From a bacterium (GTDB lineage Bacteria > Sysuimicrobiota > Sysuimicrobiia > Sysuimicrobiales > Kaftiobacteriaceae), in the NCBI GenBank assembly GCA_035693805.1, contig DASSGA010000073.1, positions 1 through 38,991 on the forward strand: DNA of 38,991 nt. The letters are read 5' to 3'. Below, piece after piece: positions 10,256 to 20,640 of the stretch; the first letter of the stretch is position 1; every line of letters begins with the position of its first letter. The notes under the pieces were generated by a model. It made no database searches, was not told the origin of the DNA, and saw only the letters and a program-made list of their open reading frames with translations. The position numbers and the translations under genes are program-made.

Positions 10256-11371
<1,116 letters not shown>

Positions 11372-11391
11372 TCGCAGACAAGGAGGGGGCA

Positions 11392-12021
11392 GTGGCGCGA
11401 GTCGGCATCATGGGCGGGACGTTCGATCCGGTGCACCACGGTCACCTGGTCACGGCCGAGGAGGCCCGCGTCCAGTTCACGCTGGAGCACGTGTACTTCG
11501 TGCCCAACCGGTACCCGCCCCACAAGCAGCTCGACCAGGTCACCGACCCCGAACACCGGTTCCGGATGACGAGCCTGGCTGTGCGGACCAATCCCCGCTT
11601 CTCCGTCTCGCGCCTCGAGATCGACCGGAGGGGCCCATCTTACACGATCGACACGCTGCTGGCGCTGCGCGCCGAGCACAACGCGCGCGACCTCTACTAC
11701 ATCACCGGCGCCGACGCCATCCTCCAGATCGTCCGCGGGGAATGGGAGCGGTCCCCCGAGCTGCTCACGTTGTGCCAGTTCATCGCGGCGAGCCGCCCCG
11801 GGTTTCCGATCGATGTCCATGACCTCCGGCGCTACAACGTGACCCGGCAGCATCTCGACAACCTGCACGTGATGGAGATTCCCGCGCTGTCCATCTCCTC
11901 GACGGACATCCGGCGCCGCGTCGCCGAGGGGCGCCCCATCCGCTACCTGCTGCCCGACGAAGTGGCGGCGTACATCGCCGAGCAGGGCCTGTATCGTCCG
12001 CCCGTTAGGTCCCTGCAGTGA
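11392..12021 (+). CDS. nadD: nicotinate-nucleotide adenylyltransferase
   Basis: GGTFDPVHHGH (HxGH nucleotidyltransferase motif) and ISSTDIRRR. Conserved obg-nadD-rsfS order. Confidence 0.9.
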   Translation: MARVGIMGGTFDPVHHGHLVTAEEARVQFTLEHVYFVPNRYPPHKQLDQVTDPEHRFRMTSLAVRTNPRFSVSRLEIDRRGPSYTIDTLLALRAEHNARDLYYITGADAILQIVRGEWERSPELLTLCQFIAASRPGFPIDVHDLRRYNVTRQHLDNLHVMEIPALSISSTDIRRRVAEGRPIRYLLPDEVAAYIAEQGLYRPPVRSLQ

Positions 12022-12359
12022 AATCGGCGCGCCAGCTAGCCCTGGTCGCAGCCGAGGCGATGGATGCGAAGAAAGCCGACAACGTCGTCGTGCTCGACCT
12101 GCGCCGGCACACCCCCGTTGCCGACTACTTCGTGATCGGCTCGGCGGAGACGATGGTGCAGTTGCGGGCCGTGAGCGAAGGGGTGGAAGAGGCCCTGACC
12201 GAGGAGGGGGTTCGGCTGCTCGGCCGGGAAGGCCACGCGCGCGCGCGGTGGATCCTGCTGGATTTCGGGCCCGTGGTCGTGCACGTCTTCGGCCCGGACG
12301 CCCGCCGCCTGTACAGTCTCGAGCGGCTCTGGGCCGACGCGCCGATCGTCGACTGGTGA
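12018..12359 (+). CDS. rsfS: ribosome silencing factor RsfS (IojAP family)
   Basis: 113 aa. DYFVI.S..S..Q..A....V and W.L.D.G.VVVHVF signatures. 4-nt overlap with nadD. Confidence 0.9.
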   Translation: MKSARQLALVAAEAMDAKKADNVVVLDLRRHTPVADYFVIGSAETMVQLRAVSEGVEEALTEEGVRLLGREGHARARWILLDFGPVVVHVFGPDARRLYSLERLWADAPIVDW

Positions 12360-13240
12360 TGGCCTCCCCGAAGCTGGTCTTTCGCCCCGCAGAACCCGCC
12401 GACGTCGCCGCGCTGGTCAGCCTCTACGACCGCCACTATTGCGGCGGCTACTCGGCTTGTTTCGATCGCTACGGCCCGGCGACGCCGCAGAACTTCTGGT
12501 GGGTGCAGTCCGAGAAGTCGGTGACCGTCGTCGAGCTGAACCGGCACCCGGTCGGCCTCGTCATCCTCGGGCGATCGGGCAAGCGGTTCCTTGCGGAGGA
12601 AGTACTCCTCGACGCGGTGCCGGAAGGGGGCGATCCTCCGCTTCGCCAGCTGCACGACTGGCTCACGGCGCGTTTCCAGCAGGAGCGACAGGACGTCCTC
12701 ACGATGCGATGCGCGGAGATCAACGCCGCGGCCCTCGCCATCGCACGGTCATTCGGATTCACGTTCGGGAACGCACTGCTGGTCGCCACGAGTAGGGCCC
12801 CAGGCGGTAGCGGGGCGGCGGGGGCCGGCAGTGCGCCGGAGGGTTATCACATCCGCCGGGCCGCGCAGGCTGACGGGAAGCACATCGCGCGCCTGCACGA
12901 GGAGACGATCGGGCACGCGCTGCGGAGCAGCGATTTGGACGCTCTCTGGCGCCAGCCCGACGTTCGGGTCATGCTGGCAGAGCGGGAGAAGTTTCCCGTA
13001 GGCCTGCTGATCGCGCAGGTCAGAGACGGCGCGGGCCGATGGACGGTCGGTGTTCGGGAGGGCCACCGGGGCCGGGGCATCGGACGCACGCTCGCGCATG
13101 CGGCCCATCAGTTCTTCCAGGCCAAGCGCGTCCCGTCCATGACGACGTACTGGGGCACGGATGTCGCCGCAGCGGGCTTCATCCGCGCGCTCGGGGCCCG
13201 GACCGAGCGGACGTACCTCTACTTCGAGCGGGCGCTGTAG
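12359..13240 (+). CDS. tandem-GNAT N-acetyltransferase
   Basis: ATG 12359 overlaps the rsfS stop (TGATG); the track ORF begins earlier at 12248 inside rsfS. Two GNAT-like halves. The second carries the acetyl-CoA loop REGHRGRGIGRTL. Confidence 0.7.
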   Translation: MASPKLVFRPAEPADVAALVSLYDRHYCGGYSACFDRYGPATPQNFWWVQSEKSVTVVELNRHPVGLVILGRSGKRFLAEEVLLDAVPEGGDPPLRQLHDWLTARFQQERQDVLTMRCAEINAAALAIARSFGFTFGNALLVATSRAPGGSGAAGAGSAPEGYHIRRAAQADGKHIARLHEETIGHALRSSDLDALWRQPDVRVMLAEREKFPVGLLIAQVRDGAGRWTVGVREGHRGRGIGRTLAHAAHQFFQAKRVPSMTTYWGTDVAAAGFIRALGARTERTYLYFERAL

Positions 13241-14134: not shown

Positions 14135-14252
14135 GGTCTCCGTGCTCGCAAACGCCGCTTCTGTGCTCATGACTATCCATGATGGTGATCTGGCGCCTGC
14201 GCACAATGAACCACACGGGCTGCTCGGCCCATCCACGGAGGGACCGCGTCGA

Positions 14253-14282
14253 TTGACGGATCTCGGGAGCCGTCGGTATAAT
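14253..14282 (+). promoter_or_regulatory. sigma-70-type promoter of the T-box/ilvE-leuS operon
   Basis: TTGACG (14253-14258), 18-nt spacer, TATAAT (14277-14282). T-box Stem I begins about 15 nt downstream. Confidence 0.6.
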
Positions 14283-14476
14283 GACAGGGTCTGAAACGCG
14301 ATGAGCGGAAGCAGTAGGCTGGTGCTCGGGATGGAGCGAGCCGGTGGAGAGGGTGGAACGACCGGCGCCAGGAGTCAGCCGAACTCGTCCGCGAGCAGCA
14401 GGCCCGACCGCGCAGGGGCGTCTGGCGCGCAGGGCCGCCGTCCTCACACGATACGTGAGTTGAGCGGATAGCGAAT

Positions 14477-14551
14477 GGGGCTGTAGCTCAGCGGGAGAGC
14501 GCCCGCTTGGCGTGCGGGAGGTCGAGGGTTCAATTCCCTCCAGCTCCACCA
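14477..14551 (+). tRNA. tRNA-Ala (anticodon GGC), CCA encoded
   Basis: Full cloverleaf by hand: acceptor GGGGCUG/CAGCUCC with G3-U70, D stem GCUC/GAGC, anticodon stem CCCGC/GCGGG with loop UUGGCGU, variable loop AGGUC, T arm GAGGG-UUCAAUU-CCCUC, discriminator A, CCA. Confidence 0.93.
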
Positions 14552-14582
14552 GATCGCTATCACGTTGGGTGGTACCGCGGAG

Positions 14583-14622
14583 GCCGCCTTCGTCCCAATG
14601 GCGACGGCGGCATTTGTGTTTT
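14583..14622 (+). terminator. T-box intrinsic terminator
   Basis: GCCGCC(U)UCGUC-CCAAU-GGCGA(C)GGCGGC hairpin followed by AUUUGUGUUUU. Its 5' arm overlaps the 3' half of the antiterminator. Confidence 0.8.
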
Positions 14623-14663
14623 CACCGGCGATCTGCTCGTTCATCAACGACGGGGGGATGGCG

Positions 14664-15692
14664 ATGGGGGGCGCGGCATCGATCTGGTTCAACGGGGCCT
14701 TGGTGAACGCGGCGGAGGCGCGCGTGCCGGTCACGGCGCACGCCCTGCACTATGGCAGCAGCGTCTTCGAGGGGATCCGGGCCTACGCGACGCCGAAAGG
14801 GCCGGCCGTATTCTGCCTGCCCCAGCACGTGCGGCGGTTGATGGACTCGTGCCGGATCTTCAGGATGACGCTGCCGTACACAGCCACCGAGGTAACGGAG
14901 GCGATCGTGGCCACGGTGCGCGCGAACAAGCACGAGAGCTGCTACATCCGTCCGCTCGTGTTTCGCGGGCCGGGGACGTTCAGCCTCGACCCGCGGACGG
15001 CCTCGGTTGAAGTGGCGATCATCACCTTCGAGTGGGGACGCTACCTGGGGCACGAGGCCGTGGAGCAGGGTGTCGACGTGATGGTCAGTTCCTGGCGGCG
15101 CGCCGCGCCCGATACCGCCGTGCCGATGGCGAAGATCGGCGGACAGTACGTGACCTCGCAGTTCATCGCGATGGAGGCCGCCGACCACGGTTTCAACGAG
15201 GGCATCGCCCTGGACGCGCAAGGGTTCATCAGCGAGGGCAGCGGCGAGAACGTCTTCATGGTGCGCGACGGGGTGGTGTTCACCCCGCCGCTGTCGGCGG
15301 GCGTCCTGCCCGGCGTCACGCGCGCGGCCGTGCTGACCCTGCTGCGCGATCTCGGGCTTCCGGTCCGTGAGGAGCCATTGCTGCGCGAGACATTGTACAT
15401 GGCCGACGAGGTGTTCTTCACCGGCACCGCCGCGGAGATCACACCGGTGCGGTCGGTGGACCGCATCGCGGTCGGCGAGGGCCGCCGGGGACCGGTGACG
15501 GCCAAGGTGGCCGAGCAGTTCTTCGGGATCACCGGGGGGCACCTGCCCGACCGACACGGCTGGCTCACGTACGTGAGCGCCGACCGGCCCAGCAGCGCCA
15601 CTCGCTCCGGCAGCGGGGATGACTCGGGCGACGGCCACCGTGCGGGCGACGGTCCCGCGCCGGCGCGCCGCGGCAGCGGCGAGCGGGCGTAG
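14664..15692 (+). CDS. ilvE: branched-chain amino acid aminotransferase (class IV PLP)
   Basis: IWFNGALV..A.V.V..HALHYGSSVFEGIRAY matches the IlvE N-terminus. ATG 14664 has GGGGGG 6 nt upstream; ATG 14658 is also possible. The track start 14565 lies inside the T-box. 38-aa low-complexity C-terminal tail. Confidence 0.9.
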   Translation: MGGAASIWFNGALVNAAEARVPVTAHALHYGSSVFEGIRAYATPKGPAVFCLPQHVRRLMDSCRIFRMTLPYTATEVTEAIVATVRANKHESCYIRPLVFRGPGTFSLDPRTASVEVAIITFEWGRYLGHEAVEQGVDVMVSSWRRAAPDTAVPMAKIGGQYVTSQFIAMEAADHGFNEGIALDAQGFISEGSGENVFMVRDGVVFTPPLSAGVLPGVTRAAVLTLLRDLGLPVREEPLLRETLYMADEVFFTGTAAEITPVRSVDRIAVGEGRRGPVTAKVAEQFFGITGGHLPDRHGWLTYVSADRPSSATRSGSGDDSGDGHRAGDGPAPARRGSGERA

Positions 15693-15707: not shown

Positions 15708-18164
15708 ATGGTCCAGCGATACGATCCGGTGTCGATCGAGGCGAAGTGGCAGGCGCGGTGGGAGGCCGACGGGCTGCACCACGCCCGCGACTTCGATCCG
15801 GCCCCGAAGTGGTACTTCCTGACGATGTACCCGTATCCATCGGGGGACCTGCACATCGGTCACTGGTACGCGATGGCGCCCTCCGACGCCGCGGCGCGCT
15901 TCAAGCGGATGCAGGGGTACAACGTGATGTTCCCGATCGGCTTCGACGCCTTCGGACTCCCGGCGGAAAACGCCGCCATCCAGCACAAGATCCATCCGTA
16001 TCGATGGACGATGGACAACATCGCCCGGATGCGAGCGCAGCTGCGCTCCATGGGGGCGATGTGGGACTGGCAGCGCGAGGTCGTCACCTGCGATCCCGAC
16101 TACTACCGCTGGAACCAGTGGTTCTTCCTGAAGATGTACGAGAAGGGGCTGGCCTACCGGGCGCTCGCGCCGGTGGACTGGTGCCCCACGGACAACACGA
16201 CCCTGGCCCGCGAGCAGGTCGTCGGCGAGGAGCGGGTCTGCGAGCGCTGCGGGACACCGGTCATCAAGAAGAACCTGGAGCAGTGGTTCCTCCGGATCAC
16301 GGCATACGCCGACGAACTGCTGGACTTCTCCGGCATCGAGTGGCCCGAGCGCGTGCGGGTGCTGCAGGAGAACTGGATCGGCAAGAGCGTCGGCGTCGAG
16401 TTCGAGCTGAAGATCGCCGGCCACGCCGGGGTAGGGTTCCGCGTCTTCACGACGCGTCCCGACACCGTGTACGGGATGACCTTTGCGGTCCTGGCGCCGG
16501 AACATCCCCTGGTTGATCGTCTCACCGCGCCGGACCGCAGAGCACAGGTTGAGGCCTACAAGTTCAAGGCGGCGCGCGAGTCCGACATCGAGCGGATGTC
16601 CACCGAGAAAGAGCGCGACGGCGTCTTCATCGGTGCGTACGCCTTGAACCCGATGAACCAGGAGCAGGTGCCGATCTTCATCGCGGACTATGTGCTGCTG
16701 ACCTATGGCACCGGCGCCATCCAGGGCGTGCCGGCCCACGACGCGCGGGACTTCGACTTCGCAAAGAAGTACCGCCTGCCGATCCCCGTCGTCATCGCCC
16801 CCCCGAGCTGGGACGGCGCCCCGCCGCGCGAGGCCTATCTGGGCGAGGGGACGATGGTGAACTCAGGTCCGTTCGACGGCATGCCGTCCGCGATGGGCTG
16901 GCAAGCCATCGCGGACTCCATGGAGCAGCATCGTCTCGGCGAGAGGAAAGTGAACTACAGGCTGCATGACTGGCTGATCAGCCGCCAGCGGTACTGGGGG
17001 ACGCCGATTCCGATCCTCTACTGCCCGCGCTGCGGAACCGTGCCGGTCCCGGAGACGGATCTGCCGGTCCGGCTCCCGATGGACGCGGAGTTCCTGCCGA
17101 CCGGCGAGTCGCCGCTCAAGCAGCACGAAGGCTTCCGGAAGGTCGCGTGTCCGACCTGCGGTGGGGAGGCCGAGCGCGAGACGGACACGATGGACACCTT
17201 CATCGACTCGTCCTGGTATCAGTACCGGTACGTCAGCCCGCACGAGCCCGACCGTCCCTTCGACCCGGCGCCGGGCGCGTACTGGCTGCCGGTCGATCAG
17301 TACACGGGCGGCGTCGAGCACGCCGTGATGCACCTGCTGTATACGCGGTTCTGGACGAAGGTGATGCGCGATCTGGGGCTGGTGACCTTTGGGGAACCGA
17401 TGACGCGGCTGTTCAACCAGGGCGTCATCCTGGGCGAAGACGGCGAGAAGATGAGCAAGTCTCGCGGCAACGTGGTGAACCCGGACGACTACGTCGCCAC
17501 GATGGGCGCGGACGTGGTGCGCGCGTACCTGATGTTCATCGGGCCGTGGGACGGCGGCGGCCCCTGGAACAGCCGGGGGATCGAAGGCGCGCAGCGCTTC
17601 CTGCAGCGGGTGTGGATGGTCGTTGCCGGCAGTGCGTCATCCGAGCGTGGAGCATCGGCGGCGCCTTCAGCCAATGGCACACGGGACCTGCGGCATTGGA
17701 CGCACAGAACGATCAAGAGAGTCACCGAAGATCTCCACGGCTTCCACTTCAATACCGCGATCGCCGCGATGATGGAGTTCGTGAACTTCCTGACCAAGGG
17801 CAAGGAGGTCATGGCCGGCACACCGGCCTGGCGCGAAGCGATCCGCACGCTCGTGCTGCTGCTCGCGCCCATCGCGCCGCACCTCGCCGAGGAGCTGTGG
17901 GAGAAGCTCGGCGGGCCGTACAGCGTGCACCGGCAGGCGTGGCCCGCGTACGATGACACGCTGGCGCGCGCGGAGCTGGTCACCCTGGTGCTGCAGGTCA
18001 ACGGCAGGGTGCGTGACCGCATCATGGTCTCGGCCGAGCTCAGCGAGGCCGAGGCTCGGCAGTTGGCGCTTCAGAATGAGAGGGTCAAGAAGTTCGTGAA
18101 TGGGAAGTCGGTCGCCGACGTCGTGGTCGTGCCCGGCCGCTTGGTGAACGTCGTTACGGGGTGA
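15708..18164 (+). CDS. leuS: leucyl-tRNA synthetase (canonical copy)
   Basis: 818 aa. HIGH (15852-15863), KMSKS (17448-17462), CP1 editing motifs TTRPDT and GTGAIQGVPAHDARD, LeuRS C-terminal domain. Confidence 0.95.
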   Translation: MVQRYDPVSIEAKWQARWEADGLHHARDFDPAPKWYFLTMYPYPSGDLHIGHWYAMAPSDAAARFKRMQGYNVMFPIGFDAFGLPAENAAIQHKIHPYRWTMDNIARMRAQLRSMGAMWDWQREVVTCDPDYYRWNQWFFLKMYEKGLAYRALAPVDWCPTDNTTLAREQVVGEERVCERCGTPVIKKNLEQWFLRITAYADELLDFSGIEWPERVRVLQENWIGKSVGVEFELKIAGHAGVGFRVFTTRPDTVYGMTFAVLAPEHPLVDRLTAPDRRAQVEAYKFKAARESDIERMSTEKERDGVFIGAYALNPMNQEQVPIFIADYVLLTYGTGAIQGVPAHDARDFDFAKKYRLPIPVVIAPPSWDGAPPREAYLGEGTMVNSGPFDGMPSAMGWQAIADSMEQHRLGERKVNYRLHDWLISRQRYWGTPIPILYCPRCGTVPVPETDLPVRLPMDAEFLPTGESPLKQHEGFRKVACPTCGGEAERETDTMDTFIDSSWYQYRYVSPHEPDRPFDPAPGAYWLPVDQYTGGVEHAVMHLLYTRFWTKVMRDLGLVTFGEPMTRLFNQGVILGEDGEKMSKSRGNVVNPDDYVATMGADVVRAYLMFIGPWDGGGPWNSRGIEGAQRFLQRVWMVVAGSASSERGASAAPSANGTRDLRHWTHRTIKRVTEDLHGFHFNTAIAAMMEFVNFLTKGKEVMAGTPAWREAIRTLVLLLAPIAPHLAEELWEKLGGPYSVHRQAWPAYDDTLARAELVTLVLQVNGRVRDRIMVSAELSEAEARQLALQNERVKKFVNGKSVADVVVVPGRLVNVVTG

Positions 18165-18195: not shown

Positions 18196-20640
18196 GTGAG
18201 AGGCGGGCCGTACGATTTCGCCACGGTCGAAGCCCGGTGGCGGCGGGCCTGGGACGAGCAGGGCATCTACCGCACGCCCGAGCCGTCACCCCGGCCGAAG
18301 CAGTACGTCCTCGATTTCTTCCCGTACCCGTCCGGGGCGGGACTCTCCGTCGGCCACGCCAGGAACTACGTGCCGACCGACGTGCTCGCCCGGTACTTGC
18401 GCATGCGTGGGAATGCGGTGCTGCACCCCATGGGCTGGGATGCCTTCGGCCTGCCGGCTGAGAACGAAGCGCTGCTGCGCGGCCGGCATCCCGGGGAGAC
18501 GACGCGCGAGTACGCCGCGAACTACCGGGCTCAGCTCAGCCTGCTCGGGTGTTCGTACGACTGGTCGCGGGAGATCGCGACGAGCGATCCGGCCTTCTAC
18601 CGCTGGACCCAGTGGGGCTTCCTCCTGCTGCACCGGAGAGGACTGGCCTACCGTGCGGTGGGGTGGCAGTGGTGGTGCCCGAAGTGCCAGACCATCCTGG
18701 CCAACGAGCAGGTCGAAGCCGGGCGGTGCTGGCGCCACGGCGACACACCTGTGGAACGCCGGTCGCTCGAGCAATGGTACGTCCGCACGACTACCCTTGC
18801 TGACCGGCTGCTGCGAGACCTCGACGACCTGGACTGGCCCGAGCACGTCAAGACCATGCAGCGAAACTGGATCGGGCGCGCCGCGGGGGCCGAGATCCGC
18901 TTCCCCCTGCCGTGGGGCGGAGGGGAGATCGCCATCTTCACGACGCGTCCGGAGACGCTGCCGGCCGCGACCTTCATCGCACTCGCGCCCGAGCATCCCC
19001 GTGCGGTCGAGCTGGCCTCCTCCGATCGGCGAGCCGACGTGGAGCGCTTCGTCATGGGCGCCCTGCGCCGGACGGAGATCGAGCGGATGGTGGGCGCTGG
19101 GATCGCCCGCAGGGCGAATGGCGGGATGGCCGACGGCGGCGGCGCGGGCGGGATCTTCACCGGGGCATTCGCCGCCCACCCCACGAGCGGCGACCTCGTG
19201 CCGGTGTACGTAGCGGATTACGTGCTGGCCCACTACGGGACGGGCGCCGTGATGGGGGTTCCGGCCTGCGACGAGCGGGACGCGGTCTTTGCGCGCCGCT
19301 TCGGCCTGCCGGTGGGGACCGGCCGTCCCATCGGTGACCCTGACGGGGTGCTGGCCGACGTCGCGCGGCGCGGTGCCGGCGGTCCGGCCGTCCGCTACCG
19401 GATGCGGGACTGGCTGATCAGCCGCCAGCGGTACTGGGGCGCCCCGATCCCGATCGTGTACTGCGAGCGCTGCGGGACGGTGCGCGTCCCGGAGGATCAA
19501 CTCCCGGTTCGACTGCCAGAGGTTGCACGCTACGAGCCATCAGGCGACGGCCGCTCCCCTCTGGCAACCATTCCGGAGTTCGTCCACACCACGTGCCCTC
19601 AGTGCGCCGGTCCTGCCGAACGCGAGACGGACACGCTCGACGGCTTCGCGGATTCGAACTGGTATTTTCTTCGCTTTGCGGACGTCCGGTATGACACCGG
19701 TCCGTGGCATCCGGAGGCCACGGGCTACTGGCTGCCGGTGGACTGGTACATCGGCGGCGTCGAGCACGCCGTGATGCACCTGCTCTACGCCCGGTTCTTC
19801 ACCAAGGTCTTGCAGGACGCGGGACTCATCGCCTTCGGGGAGCCCTTCGTCCGGCTGCGCAACCAGGGCAGCATGCTCTCGCCGTCCGACGGCGCCAGGA
19901 TGAGCAAGTCCCGCGGCAACGTCGTGACCCCGGACGAGGTGGTCGCCCAGCACGGAGCGGATGCCTTGCGGCTGGCCGTGATGTTCATCGGCCCATTCGA
20001 TCAGGACGTCACCTGGGACCCGGACGCGGCGAGGGGGGCCGCGCGTTTCGTCCGCCGCCTTCACCTGCTGATCGCCCGGGCCGCGGAGGCCGCAGCCCGC
20101 CCCGCTCCGCCGGCCACAGGAGAGCCTCCGGGGGCTGAGGCGCCGCGCCGGCGGCTCCACCACGCGATCAGGACGGTAGGGGAGTTGATCGAAGGATTCC
20201 GGTTCAACGTGCTCGTCGCGGAGTTGATGACTCTGCTCAACGATCTCGAGCCCCTCGAGTCAGGCTGGGCGGGCACGCCCCAGTGGCGCGAGGCGATGCT
20301 GATGCTTGTCCGGATCATCGCGCCGGTCACCCCATTCCTTGCGGAGGAGGCCTGGGCCATGCTCGGTGGGGAGGGAAGTGTTCACCAGAGCAGTTGGCCC
20401 AAGGGTGACCCGGCGCTCACGGCGGAGGGGGACGCGGAAGCGACCATCGTCGTCCAGGTGGACGGGCGCGTGCGCGATCGCATCGTGGTGAAGGGGATCC
20501 CGGACCGGGACGTCCTCATCGAGGCCGCCCGGGGGCGGGAGAGGATCGCCTCGGTGCTCGCGGGGCGTGACGTGGTGGATGTCGTGGTGATCCCCGGCCG
20601 CGTGGTCAACTTCGTCACAGCGAGACGGGGGGAGAGGTAA
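18196..20640 (+). CDS. leucyl-tRNA synthetase paralog with variant signature motifs
   Basis: 814 aa intact ORF, collinear with bacterial LeuRS (WDAFGLPAEN, CPKCQTILANEQV, TTRPET, RDWLISRQRYWG, GGVEHAVMHLLYARFF). HIGH reads SVGH (18346-18357), KMSKS reads RMSKS (19897-19911), the editing-site motif reads GVPACDERD. Confidence 0.88.
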   Translation: MRGGPYDFATVEARWRRAWDEQGIYRTPEPSPRPKQYVLDFFPYPSGAGLSVGHARNYVPTDVLARYLRMRGNAVLHPMGWDAFGLPAENEALLRGRHPGETTREYAANYRAQLSLLGCSYDWSREIATSDPAFYRWTQWGFLLLHRRGLAYRAVGWQWWCPKCQTILANEQVEAGRCWRHGDTPVERRSLEQWYVRTTTLADRLLRDLDDLDWPEHVKTMQRNWIGRAAGAEIRFPLPWGGGEIAIFTTRPETLPAATFIALAPEHPRAVELASSDRRADVERFVMGALRRTEIERMVGAGIARRANGGMADGGGAGGIFTGAFAAHPTSGDLVPVYVADYVLAHYGTGAVMGVPACDERDAVFARRFGLPVGTGRPIGDPDGVLADVARRGAGGPAVRYRMRDWLISRQRYWGAPIPIVYCERCGTVRVPEDQLPVRLPEVARYEPSGDGRSPLATIPEFVHTTCPQCAGPAERETDTLDGFADSNWYFLRFADVRYDTGPWHPEATGYWLPVDWYIGGVEHAVMHLLYARFFTKVLQDAGLIAFGEPFVRLRNQGSMLSPSDGARMSKSRGNVVTPDEVVAQHGADALRLAVMFIGPFDQDVTWDPDAARGAARFVRRLHLLIARAAEAAARPAPPATGEPPGAEAPRRRLHHAIRTVGELIEGFRFNVLVAELMTLLNDLEPLESGWAGTPQWREAMLMLVRIIAPVTPFLAEEAWAMLGGEGSVHQSSWPKGDPALTAEGDAEATIVVQVDGRVRDRIVVKGIPDRDVLIEAARGRERIASVLAGRDVVDVVVIPGRVVNFVTARRGER

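Follow-up and report, generated by a model that had tools for sequence, protein, structure and literature searches.

The locus considered here raises the question of how a complete tRNA gene comes to stand between the two halves of a riboswitch, and whether the leader around it is intact or a dead one split by an insertion. It lies in a stretch of 38,991 nucleotides (nt) from an uncultured lineage of the Sysuimicrobiota (family Kaftiobacteriaceae; GenBank assembly GCA_035693805.1, contig DASSGA010000073.1, positions 1 to 38,991 of the forward strand), which in its full length is termed the window. In the leader upstream of ilvE, leuS and a second leuS paralogue (leuS2), a T-box of leucine specificity carries a tRNA-Ala(GGC) gene in the loop of Stem III. 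This nesting had been proposed in an annotation made from the sequence alone, referred to as the first-pass annotation, and is assessed here by covariance-model searches, folding and comparison with related genomes.

The arrangement is probably that of a functional Leu T-box with the specifier CUC, controlling ilvE-leuS-leuS2, in which the Stem III loop has been replaced by a functional tRNA-Ala(GGC) passenger gene. In the T-box discriminator the stem and loop of Stem III are variable, and insertions into Stem III are known (PMC7583486). The 5' and 3' ends of a tRNA meet in the acceptor stem, so the gene can cap the helix that closes Stem III with the riboswitch core undisturbed; Stem I with the specifier, the Stem III purine strings, the T-box bulge and the antiterminator/terminator would all be left in place. 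Both components are textbook examples of their kind, and it is the nesting of one within the other that is new.

The nested tRNA gene and the surrounding T-box leader

The only tRNA detected by ARAGORN in the whole 39-kb window is a 75-nt tRNA-Ala(GGC) at 14477-14551 with the anticodon at 14509-14511; like all features described below, it is on the forward (+) strand. Covariance-model scoring of this gene, set beforehand as a test, gives 69.5 bits with the Rfam tRNA model (RF00005) compared with a gathering score of 29, and the complete tRNA gene of the first-pass annotation is thus found by both programs. Reading of the sequence shows the G3:U70 pair, the discriminator base A73 and an encoded CCA, with U as the base at position -1 (14476). 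Over its full length the gene is ~80% identical to annotated E. coli tRNA-Ala genes. GCC, the codon of the nested tRNA, is the most frequent codon across six window genes.

A search of 14200-14700 with E-value reporting returns a single full-length alignment of the Rfam T-box model RF00230 (model positions 1-219) at 14292-14600, with a score of 65.9 bits and E = 3.5e-14 (501 bases searched). Stem I and the antiterminator are both included in it, with 79 nt accommodated as an insertion in the loop of Stem III, so that the covariance model joins both halves of the leader in one T-box match. With gathering thresholds Rfam reports the tRNA only and no T-box in the window.

The leader is preceded by a sigma-70-type promoter, TTGACG-N18-TATAAT, at 14253-14282, which matches 11 of 12 consensus positions in the promoter scan, is the sole promoter-like site between 13500 and 15500 and is presumed to drive the leader, the tRNA and the operon. 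Stem I (14298-14396, model positions 7-103) contains the K-turn GAUGA, the AGUA motif, the AG bulge AGCGA, the distal loop GGUGGAA and the specifier loop, in which the alignment assigns the Leu codon CUC to 14384-14386 in the context GAA-CUC-G. The promoter and each of the Stem I motifs named in the first-pass annotation are therefore recovered. Two G+C-rich hairpins that it had left unassigned are also present, and the alignment corrects their identity to Stem II and the Stem IIA/B region (14399-14459). The F-box of the window is CGAUA, not CGUUA, and with Stem IIA/B aligned by the covariance model its pseudoknot is putative.

Stem III of T-boxes is flanked by purine strings with the motif 5'-RRRxG ... 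AA-3' (PMC7583486). In the window the 5' string is GAGCG (14462-14466), followed by the Stem III 5' arm GAUAGCGA (14467-14474), which pairs perfectly over 8 base pairs (bp) with the 3' arm UCGCUAUC (14554-14561) in both the folding and the pair lists; the linker ACGUU follows the 3' arm. This helix encloses the tRNA as had been described. Four further pairs after a bulge (AGCG/CGUU), also described, do appear in the minimum-free-energy fold, but they draw on bases of the conserved purine string GAGCG and on a portion of antiterminator helix A1, and by eye they are not kept in relatives.

The expression platform begins with the T-box box UUGGGUGGUACCGCGG at 14565-14580 in the RF00230 alignment. 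The antiterminator (14565-14598) consists of helix A1 (14565-69/14594-98), the bulge UGGUACC (14570-76) and helix A2 (14577-82/14588-93), as seen in the alignment and the pair list at the coordinates first given for them. Minimum-free-energy folds show a terminator hairpin at 14583-14611 (6 + 5 pairs with a 1x1 internal loop), which with the U-rich AUUUGUGUUUUC extends to 14623. The hairpin shares bases with the 3' strands of both A1 and A2, and the folds bear out that terminator and antiterminator are mutually exclusive. The window contains a single match to the combined pattern of tRNA T-loop, CCA and T-box box, and 0 of 100 shuffles contain any.

Conservation and covariation across genomes

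The genomic context of six lineages of IlvE homologues provides a route to relatives that is independent of the tRNA. The best named IlvE match is Armatimonadetes bacterium RBG_19FT_COMBO_69_19, and the names of the relatives include Bacillati bacterium ANGP1 and Candidatus Fervidifonticultor (Candidatus Sysuimicrobiota). The same tRNA nesting is seen in five of the six lineages. The nested tRNA is present at 94% IlvE identity (L001; related loci are designated by L numbers) and at 82% (L002-L004). At 69% identity it occurs in two forms, one with a 175-nt Stem III insert made up of the tRNA and ~100 nt of extra hairpins (L005-L007) and one with the tRNA and a short extra hairpin (L014, L015). 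At 67% identity (L012) the order is promoter, tRNA-Ala(CGC), T-box with nested tRNA-Ala(GGC) and ilvE.

The sixth lineage, L009, lacks the tRNA; its 220-nt Leu T-box (2216-2435) has an ordinary hairpin as Stem III and precedes ilvE and leuS. L009 belongs to the same clade as the window, with IlvE 71% and LeuRS 77% identical, and is in effect a natural control in which the absence of the tRNA is probably a secondary loss. A T-box with a plain Stem III in this position implies that the switch itself does not require the tRNA.

With each GTDB species represented by one genome, a pattern scan that requires a tRNA T-loop and an encoded CCA, with a T-box box ~7-67 nt away, yields at least 119 loci; this and all further scan-based counts refer to the matches listed. 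ARAGORN finds a tRNA-Ala(GGC) at the match in 113 of the 119 loci, and of the remainder four are cut by the edge of the locus and two are chance matches to other tRNAs without a T-box. Of 123 related loci, 110 have GAACTC, the context of the Leu CUC specifier, within 260 nt 5' of the tRNA. When the listed scan loci are combined with the window and the earlier loci (128 regions), the first downstream gene is leuS in 98 and ilvE in 23, together 121 of the 128.

By record label the loci are spread over Chloroflexota (about 43), Syntrophomonadaceae (29) and other Bacillota (25; labels include Peptococcaceae, Thermoanaerobacteraceae, Desulfotruncus, Desulfitispora, Desulfallas, Pelotomaculum and Gelria), with smaller numbers in Candidatus Fervidifonticultor (3), metagenome-assembled genomes labelled Proteobacteria (3, possibly mislabelled), Atribacteria (2), Coprothermobacterota (2), Armatimonadota (2) and a metagenome-assembled genome labelled Actinomycetota (1). 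In three cultured species the RF00230 match spans the nested tRNA and exceeds the gathering score: Desulfotruncus alcoholivorax (130.7 bits, with a textbook promoter and terminator), Desulfitispora alkaliphila (115.9 bits) and Tengunoibacter tsumagoiensis (100.7 bits). A textbook terminator is present in the tRNA-bearing leader of L029. From these comparisons the nesting is seen as a widespread and old architecture of leuS leaders, not one peculiar to the genome of the window.

The window comes from an uncultured lineage, and a metagenome-derived contig can be suspected of a chance juxtaposition or an assembly chimera. The same architecture in independent assemblies and isolate genomes, the combined pattern that no shuffle of the window reproduces and the strong covariation described next leave this account a negligible probability, and the comparative data rule it out.

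Covariation is evaluated on an alignment made with MAFFT without structural guidance, containing 82 distinct sequences, each of which begins 26 nt 5' of the tRNA and ends 34 nt into the T-box box. Pairs are counted on the structure of the window. Pairing is 100% in the acceptor, anticodon and T stems of the tRNA and 97.3% in the D stem, and double-sided changes are numerous; one pair of the anticodon stem is CG in 48 sequences and GC in 34, and one of the T stem is GC in 32, CG in 27, UA in 17 and AU in 6. All 82 relatives have G3:U70, and the columns of the GGC anticodon, the T-loop and ACCA are invariant.

The Stem III helix around the tRNA and the antiterminator covary as well. The five basal pairs of Stem III are 76-80% paired despite register noise, and each of them changes on both sides (for example AU 23, GC 21). 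Pairing over the 82 relatives is 88.9% for A1 and 95.2% for A2. The overall covariation score is 0.385; shuffles give 0.153, with 0 of 500 reaching the observed score, and slid partners do not exceed 0.122. The longest native flank helix averages 6.28 bp compared with 5.02 for permuted partners (standard deviation 0.11), and Stem III pairing in a fixed register, which is noisy through register errors, gives 4.03 compared with 3.10 pairs. AA stands directly 3' of Stem III in 85 of 95 relatives, and the most common 5-mers before the 5' arm are GAGTG, GAGCG, AAGCG and AAGTG; together these agree with the published RRRxG ... AA motif (PMC7583486). The leaders of the relatives keep the specifier and Stem III, the purine string, the T-box box and the antiterminator, with covariation, and the comparative data support the proposal of an intact leader over that of a dead one split by an insertion.

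The ACCA of the tRNA (14548-14551) is complementary to the UGGU of the antiterminator bulge (14570-14573), as had been pointed out, and this could suggest a cis-acting role for the nested tRNA, as decoy or inducer, in which its pairing with the bulge biases the terminator decision. The complementarity is real, but the same pairing is available to any tRNA with A73, tRNA-Leu included. Its spacing is highly variable among the relatives, with 11-66 nt between the tRNA and the T-box box within the 7-67 nt window of the scan and ~108 nt in L005, and in eight relatives, all with the ACCA unchanged, the bulge is UGGC or UGGA. The anticodon GGC cannot read the CUC specifier, and A76 would become a free 3' end only on processing; T-box discriminators sterically reject tRNAs with a 3'-end extension (PMC7583486). 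An interaction in cis is accordingly regarded as extremely improbable.

Other tRNAs nested in T-boxes were also sought. Among the matches listed only two are not tRNA-Ala, a tRNA-Val (L036) and a tRNA-Arg of Slackia (L091), neither with an Rfam T-box. A scan of the whole metagenome collection for tRNAs without G3:U70 gives only 20 matches, none of them a convincing nested T-box and most of them on inspection resembling chance juxtapositions. Within reach of the patterns used, the sequence comparisons indicate that the nesting is specific to tRNA-Ala(GGC) in Leu T-boxes.

Several lineages show additional elements around the nested tRNA. Extra hairpins of ~25-100 nt separate the tRNA from the Stem III 3' arm in L005 (2698-2796), L014 (2377-2402), L035, L058, L087, L099, L106, L116 and L132. 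In a Chloroflexota subgroup of these (L035, L087, L099, L116, L132) the hairpin is strong and G+C-rich, and a U-rich stretch after it overlaps with the 3' arm. A tRNA-Ala(CGC) is located directly 5' of Stem I in 17 pattern-matched loci. In L012 (708-1217) the sole promoter-like site, TTGACA-N17-TACAAT (708-736), precedes the tRNA-Ala(CGC), and the T-box appears to be sandwiched by two tRNA-Ala genes in one predicted transcript.

Transcription, processing and the role of the tRNA

Release of the tRNA from the leader would depend on where transcription starts. Among the listed matches, promoter-like sites with at least 10 of 12 consensus positions peak 175-225 nt 5' of the tRNA, just 5' of Stem I (107 non-redundant loci), and in 66 of 108 loci such a site ends 160-240 nt 5' of the tRNA, at the same relative position as in the window. 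Transcription of the tRNA from the riboswitch promoter, as the first-pass annotation had envisaged, is in keeping with these positions and with the lack of any promoter-like site just 5' of the tRNA in the window.

A different account separates the two halves, with the tRNA transcribed from an internal promoter of its own, Stem I being a relic or a separate transcript and the T-box box and terminator just ending the tRNA gene. It draws on one subgroup of Chloroflexota, Ktedonobacteria-type loci with a TTGYCG-N17-TATAAT-like motif 34-64 nt 5' of the nested tRNA. No such internal site is present in the window, however, and only 6 of 92 promoter-like matches in the 107 loci lie within 75 nt of the tRNA. 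In L055 the similar sequence overlies T-box elements, so the resemblance to a promoter may be incidental, and the conservation of Stem I, the CUC specifier and the purine string is unlike that of a relic. Decoupling of the halves is judged very improbable.

The Ktedonobacteria-type motif itself is found in L018, L021, L037, L073, L104 and L113, and could be either an internal promoter or a by-product of T-box motifs. In the related L055 (4179-4535), taken to represent this subgroup, the similar sequence TTGTCG ... CATAAT is weaker and coincides with Stem II/IIA-B and the A/U-rich linker. Stem III of this locus is apparently bipartite (GATC..GCGGT / ACCGC..GATC), and Rfam mis-pairs it with the T arm of the tRNA.

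With a functional T-box and a passenger tRNA gene, the order of events would be as follows. Transcription would begin at the strong promoter at 14253-14282, and since the terminator comes after the tRNA, the latter would be made on every round regardless of termination. Charged tRNA-Leu would leave the terminator to stop most transcripts, and uncharged tRNA-Leu would stabilise the antiterminator so that the polymerase reaches ilvE-leuS. RNase P would then cut between 14476 and 14477 and 3' maturation would free tRNA-Ala, severing Stem I-II from the expression platform once the decision has been made. The leader would in this way be a tRNA transcription unit and a conditional terminator at once.

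Bacterial RNase P prefers U at position -1 of its substrates. This base is U in 86 of 111 listed loci (77%), compared with 21% T in the leaders. Together with the invariant decoding and identity elements and the local usage of GCC, it suggests that the nested tRNA is used in translation.

Several observations weigh against a working T-box with a passenger tRNA. The window T-box, at 65.9 bits, scores below the Rfam gathering score of 93. The T-box of L009, which is tRNA-free and of the same clade, scores 57.2 bits and is likewise below 93, and the divergent G+C-rich sequence is a more likely reason for the low score of the window than the insertion is. The 3' flank of Stem III in the window is AC, one A short of the AA found in most relatives. 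The U-tract is interrupted, and a simple terminator scan makes no call at this hairpin, which is attributed to the 1x1 internal loop. Spacers of 2 nt place the RNase P site beside the 8-bp helix and might slow cleavage. A neutral passenger would also be expected to move away more often, and the nesting may confer some benefit.

The last point leads to the proposal that the tRNA is integral to the working of the switch, possibly being used in translation as well. In one version its 75 nt provide a co-transcriptional delay between capture of tRNA-Leu by Stem I and sensing by the discriminator. In a second, programmed excision frees Stem I with tRNA-Leu and leaves the ilvE-leuS mRNA with a protective 5' hairpin that sets its half-life, and in a third the cleaved leader persists as a two-piece riboswitch with the halves held by Stem III. 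The nesting is kept in at least 113 species-level genomes, in several phyla by label, which exceeds the expectation for a neutral passenger, and the Stem III helix that would join the halves is conserved and covarying. Cleavage of a T-box leader is known from the processing of the B. subtilis thrS leader. Another case is the S. aureus met leader, which is cut by RNase III with control of mRNA stability (PMC7913692).

On the other side, L009 has the same operon and a T-box with a plain Stem III hairpin, and the distance from the tRNA to the T-box box appears unconstrained over the range given above. G3:U70, A73 and GGC are invariant and are needed only for aminoacylation and decoding; a timer or a cleavage signal would not need them. 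These points argue that any integral role would not be the primary role of the tRNA, and the proposal is considered rather unlikely.

A narrower idea is that excision is part of the switch, with RNase P and 3' processing splitting the riboswitch after the decision, discarding Stem I with tRNA-Leu and leaving the terminator hairpin at the new 5' end of the ilvE-leuS mRNA, the lifetime of which it would set. This is possible, though on balance unlikely. If it were true, terminated leaders, which are normally waste, would be recycled into a heavily used tRNA, and the riboswitch, the tRNA gene and the mRNA-stability determinant would form one co-evolved unit, which could explain the persistence of the arrangement across phyla.

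Relation to known systems and genomic surroundings

The window leader resembles canonical transcriptional T-boxes (RF00230; B. subtilis tyrS, glyQS, leuS) in having a Stem I that contains a K-turn, a specifier loop, an AG bulge and a distal loop, Stem II, Stem IIA/B, a Stem III with purine flanks that in the window are GAGCG and, on the 3' side, AC in place of AA, a T-box box with UGGN bulge, exclusive antiterminator and terminator and a cognate synthetase downstream. It differs in the Stem III loop, which has a few nt in those T-boxes and is here occupied by a 75-76-nt tRNA gene for another amino acid, with added hairpins in some lineages. With a whole tRNA gene in this loop the leader would also be a tRNA precursor, and maturation must cut it in two.

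Lineage-specific insertions into T-boxes are another parallel, as in these structured RNA is added peripherally to the discriminator and the core is kept. Examples are stem Sa of S. aureus glyS (PMC9177973) and the insertions in Stem III and helix A2 of translational T-boxes (PMC7583486). Those insertions are riboswitch-specific hairpins, whereas the insert described here is a recognisable gene with processing signals and identity elements, and its conservation spans phyla rather than one genus.

In the tRNA-tufB operon of E. coli, and for tRNA-Ile and tRNA-Ala in the 16S-23S rRNA spacers, tRNAs are released from longer transcripts by RNase P and 3' processing. The likeness is that the tRNA comes from a transcript with another function, and that in rRNA operons it lies between segments with long-range pairing. 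Unlike the tRNA of the window, these tRNAs are outside any ligand-sensing fold that needs both flanks. Processed T-box leaders (S. aureus met, B. subtilis thrS) are similar in that cleavage after or alongside the decision affects mRNA stability. There the cuts are made by decay or maturation nucleases at leader-specific sites, whereas here RNase P is the predicted enzyme and the excised piece would itself be useful.

No description of a tRNA gene inside a T-box was found in the literature searched, which included TBDB, the 2020 T-box review, Wels 2008 and the 2024 paper on glycyl T-boxes, and an earlier passing mention is possible. Riboswitch leaders are regarded as dedicated regulatory RNA, the terminated products of which are discarded; the leader described here is the predicted precursor of a tRNA for the codon most used locally, and release of that tRNA would necessarily break the covalent continuity of the riboswitch. 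It offers a natural system for comparing the speed of T-box commitment with that of RNA processing and for a two-piece T-box held by Stem III, and it bears on whether leader processing sets the stability of synthetase mRNA. Tolerance of a 75-175-nt structured insert in the Stem III loop is useful for engineering. Because the window leader scored below the gathering threshold, pipelines that apply such thresholds could miss or split leaders of this type. The cultured carriers Desulfotruncus alcoholivorax, Desulfitispora alkaliphila, Thermosyntropha lipolytica and Tengunoibacter tsumagoiensis make the arrangement directly testable.

The first gene after the leader in the window is ilvE (14658-15692), which encodes a branched-chain amino-acid aminotransferase (Pfam Aminotran_4, E = 1e-53) 94% identical to an annotated enzyme of this type. 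It is followed by leuS (15708-18164), encoding a leucyl-tRNA synthetase with the HIGH motif intact and with Pfam matches to tRNA-synt_1, the LeuRS editing domain and Anticodon_1. A second, divergent leuS paralogue, leuS2 (18196-20640), is identified by Pfam and is 45% identical to the first. The Leu specifier CUC agrees with all three downstream genes. In the second paralogue SVGH replaces HIGH and RMSKS replaces KMSKS, and the editing-domain match in Pfam is truncated; the gene calls of L001, L002 and L005 also show leuS followed by another LeuRS-like gene.

Upstream of the leader, obg, a nadD-like gene, rsfS and a GNAT acetyltransferase gene occupy 10295-13240 of the window, and the rsfS/GNAT neighbourhood recurs 5' of the leader in L002, L005 and L014.

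The one arrangement with another tRNA that recurs is a tRNA-Val(GAC) in L036 (5396-5484, reverse strand), L135 (3730-3818, reverse strand) and L141 (1636-1724, forward strand). About 60 nt 3' of it the T-box-box-like GGGTGGGACCGCGGGG is followed by a hairpin, and the interval between tRNA and box leaves no room for Stem I. None of the three loci has an Rfam T-box match. The open reading frames 3' of this tRNA resemble by eye ThrRS and IF3 and are presumably thrS-infC. These loci may contain a truncated or unusual T-box adjoining the tRNA.

In Desulfotomaculia-type loci (L029, 6364-8000; L082, L127, L130) a gene of ~1.7-2 kb resembling an AMP-dependent synthetase/ligase is located between the tRNA-bearing T-box and leuS.

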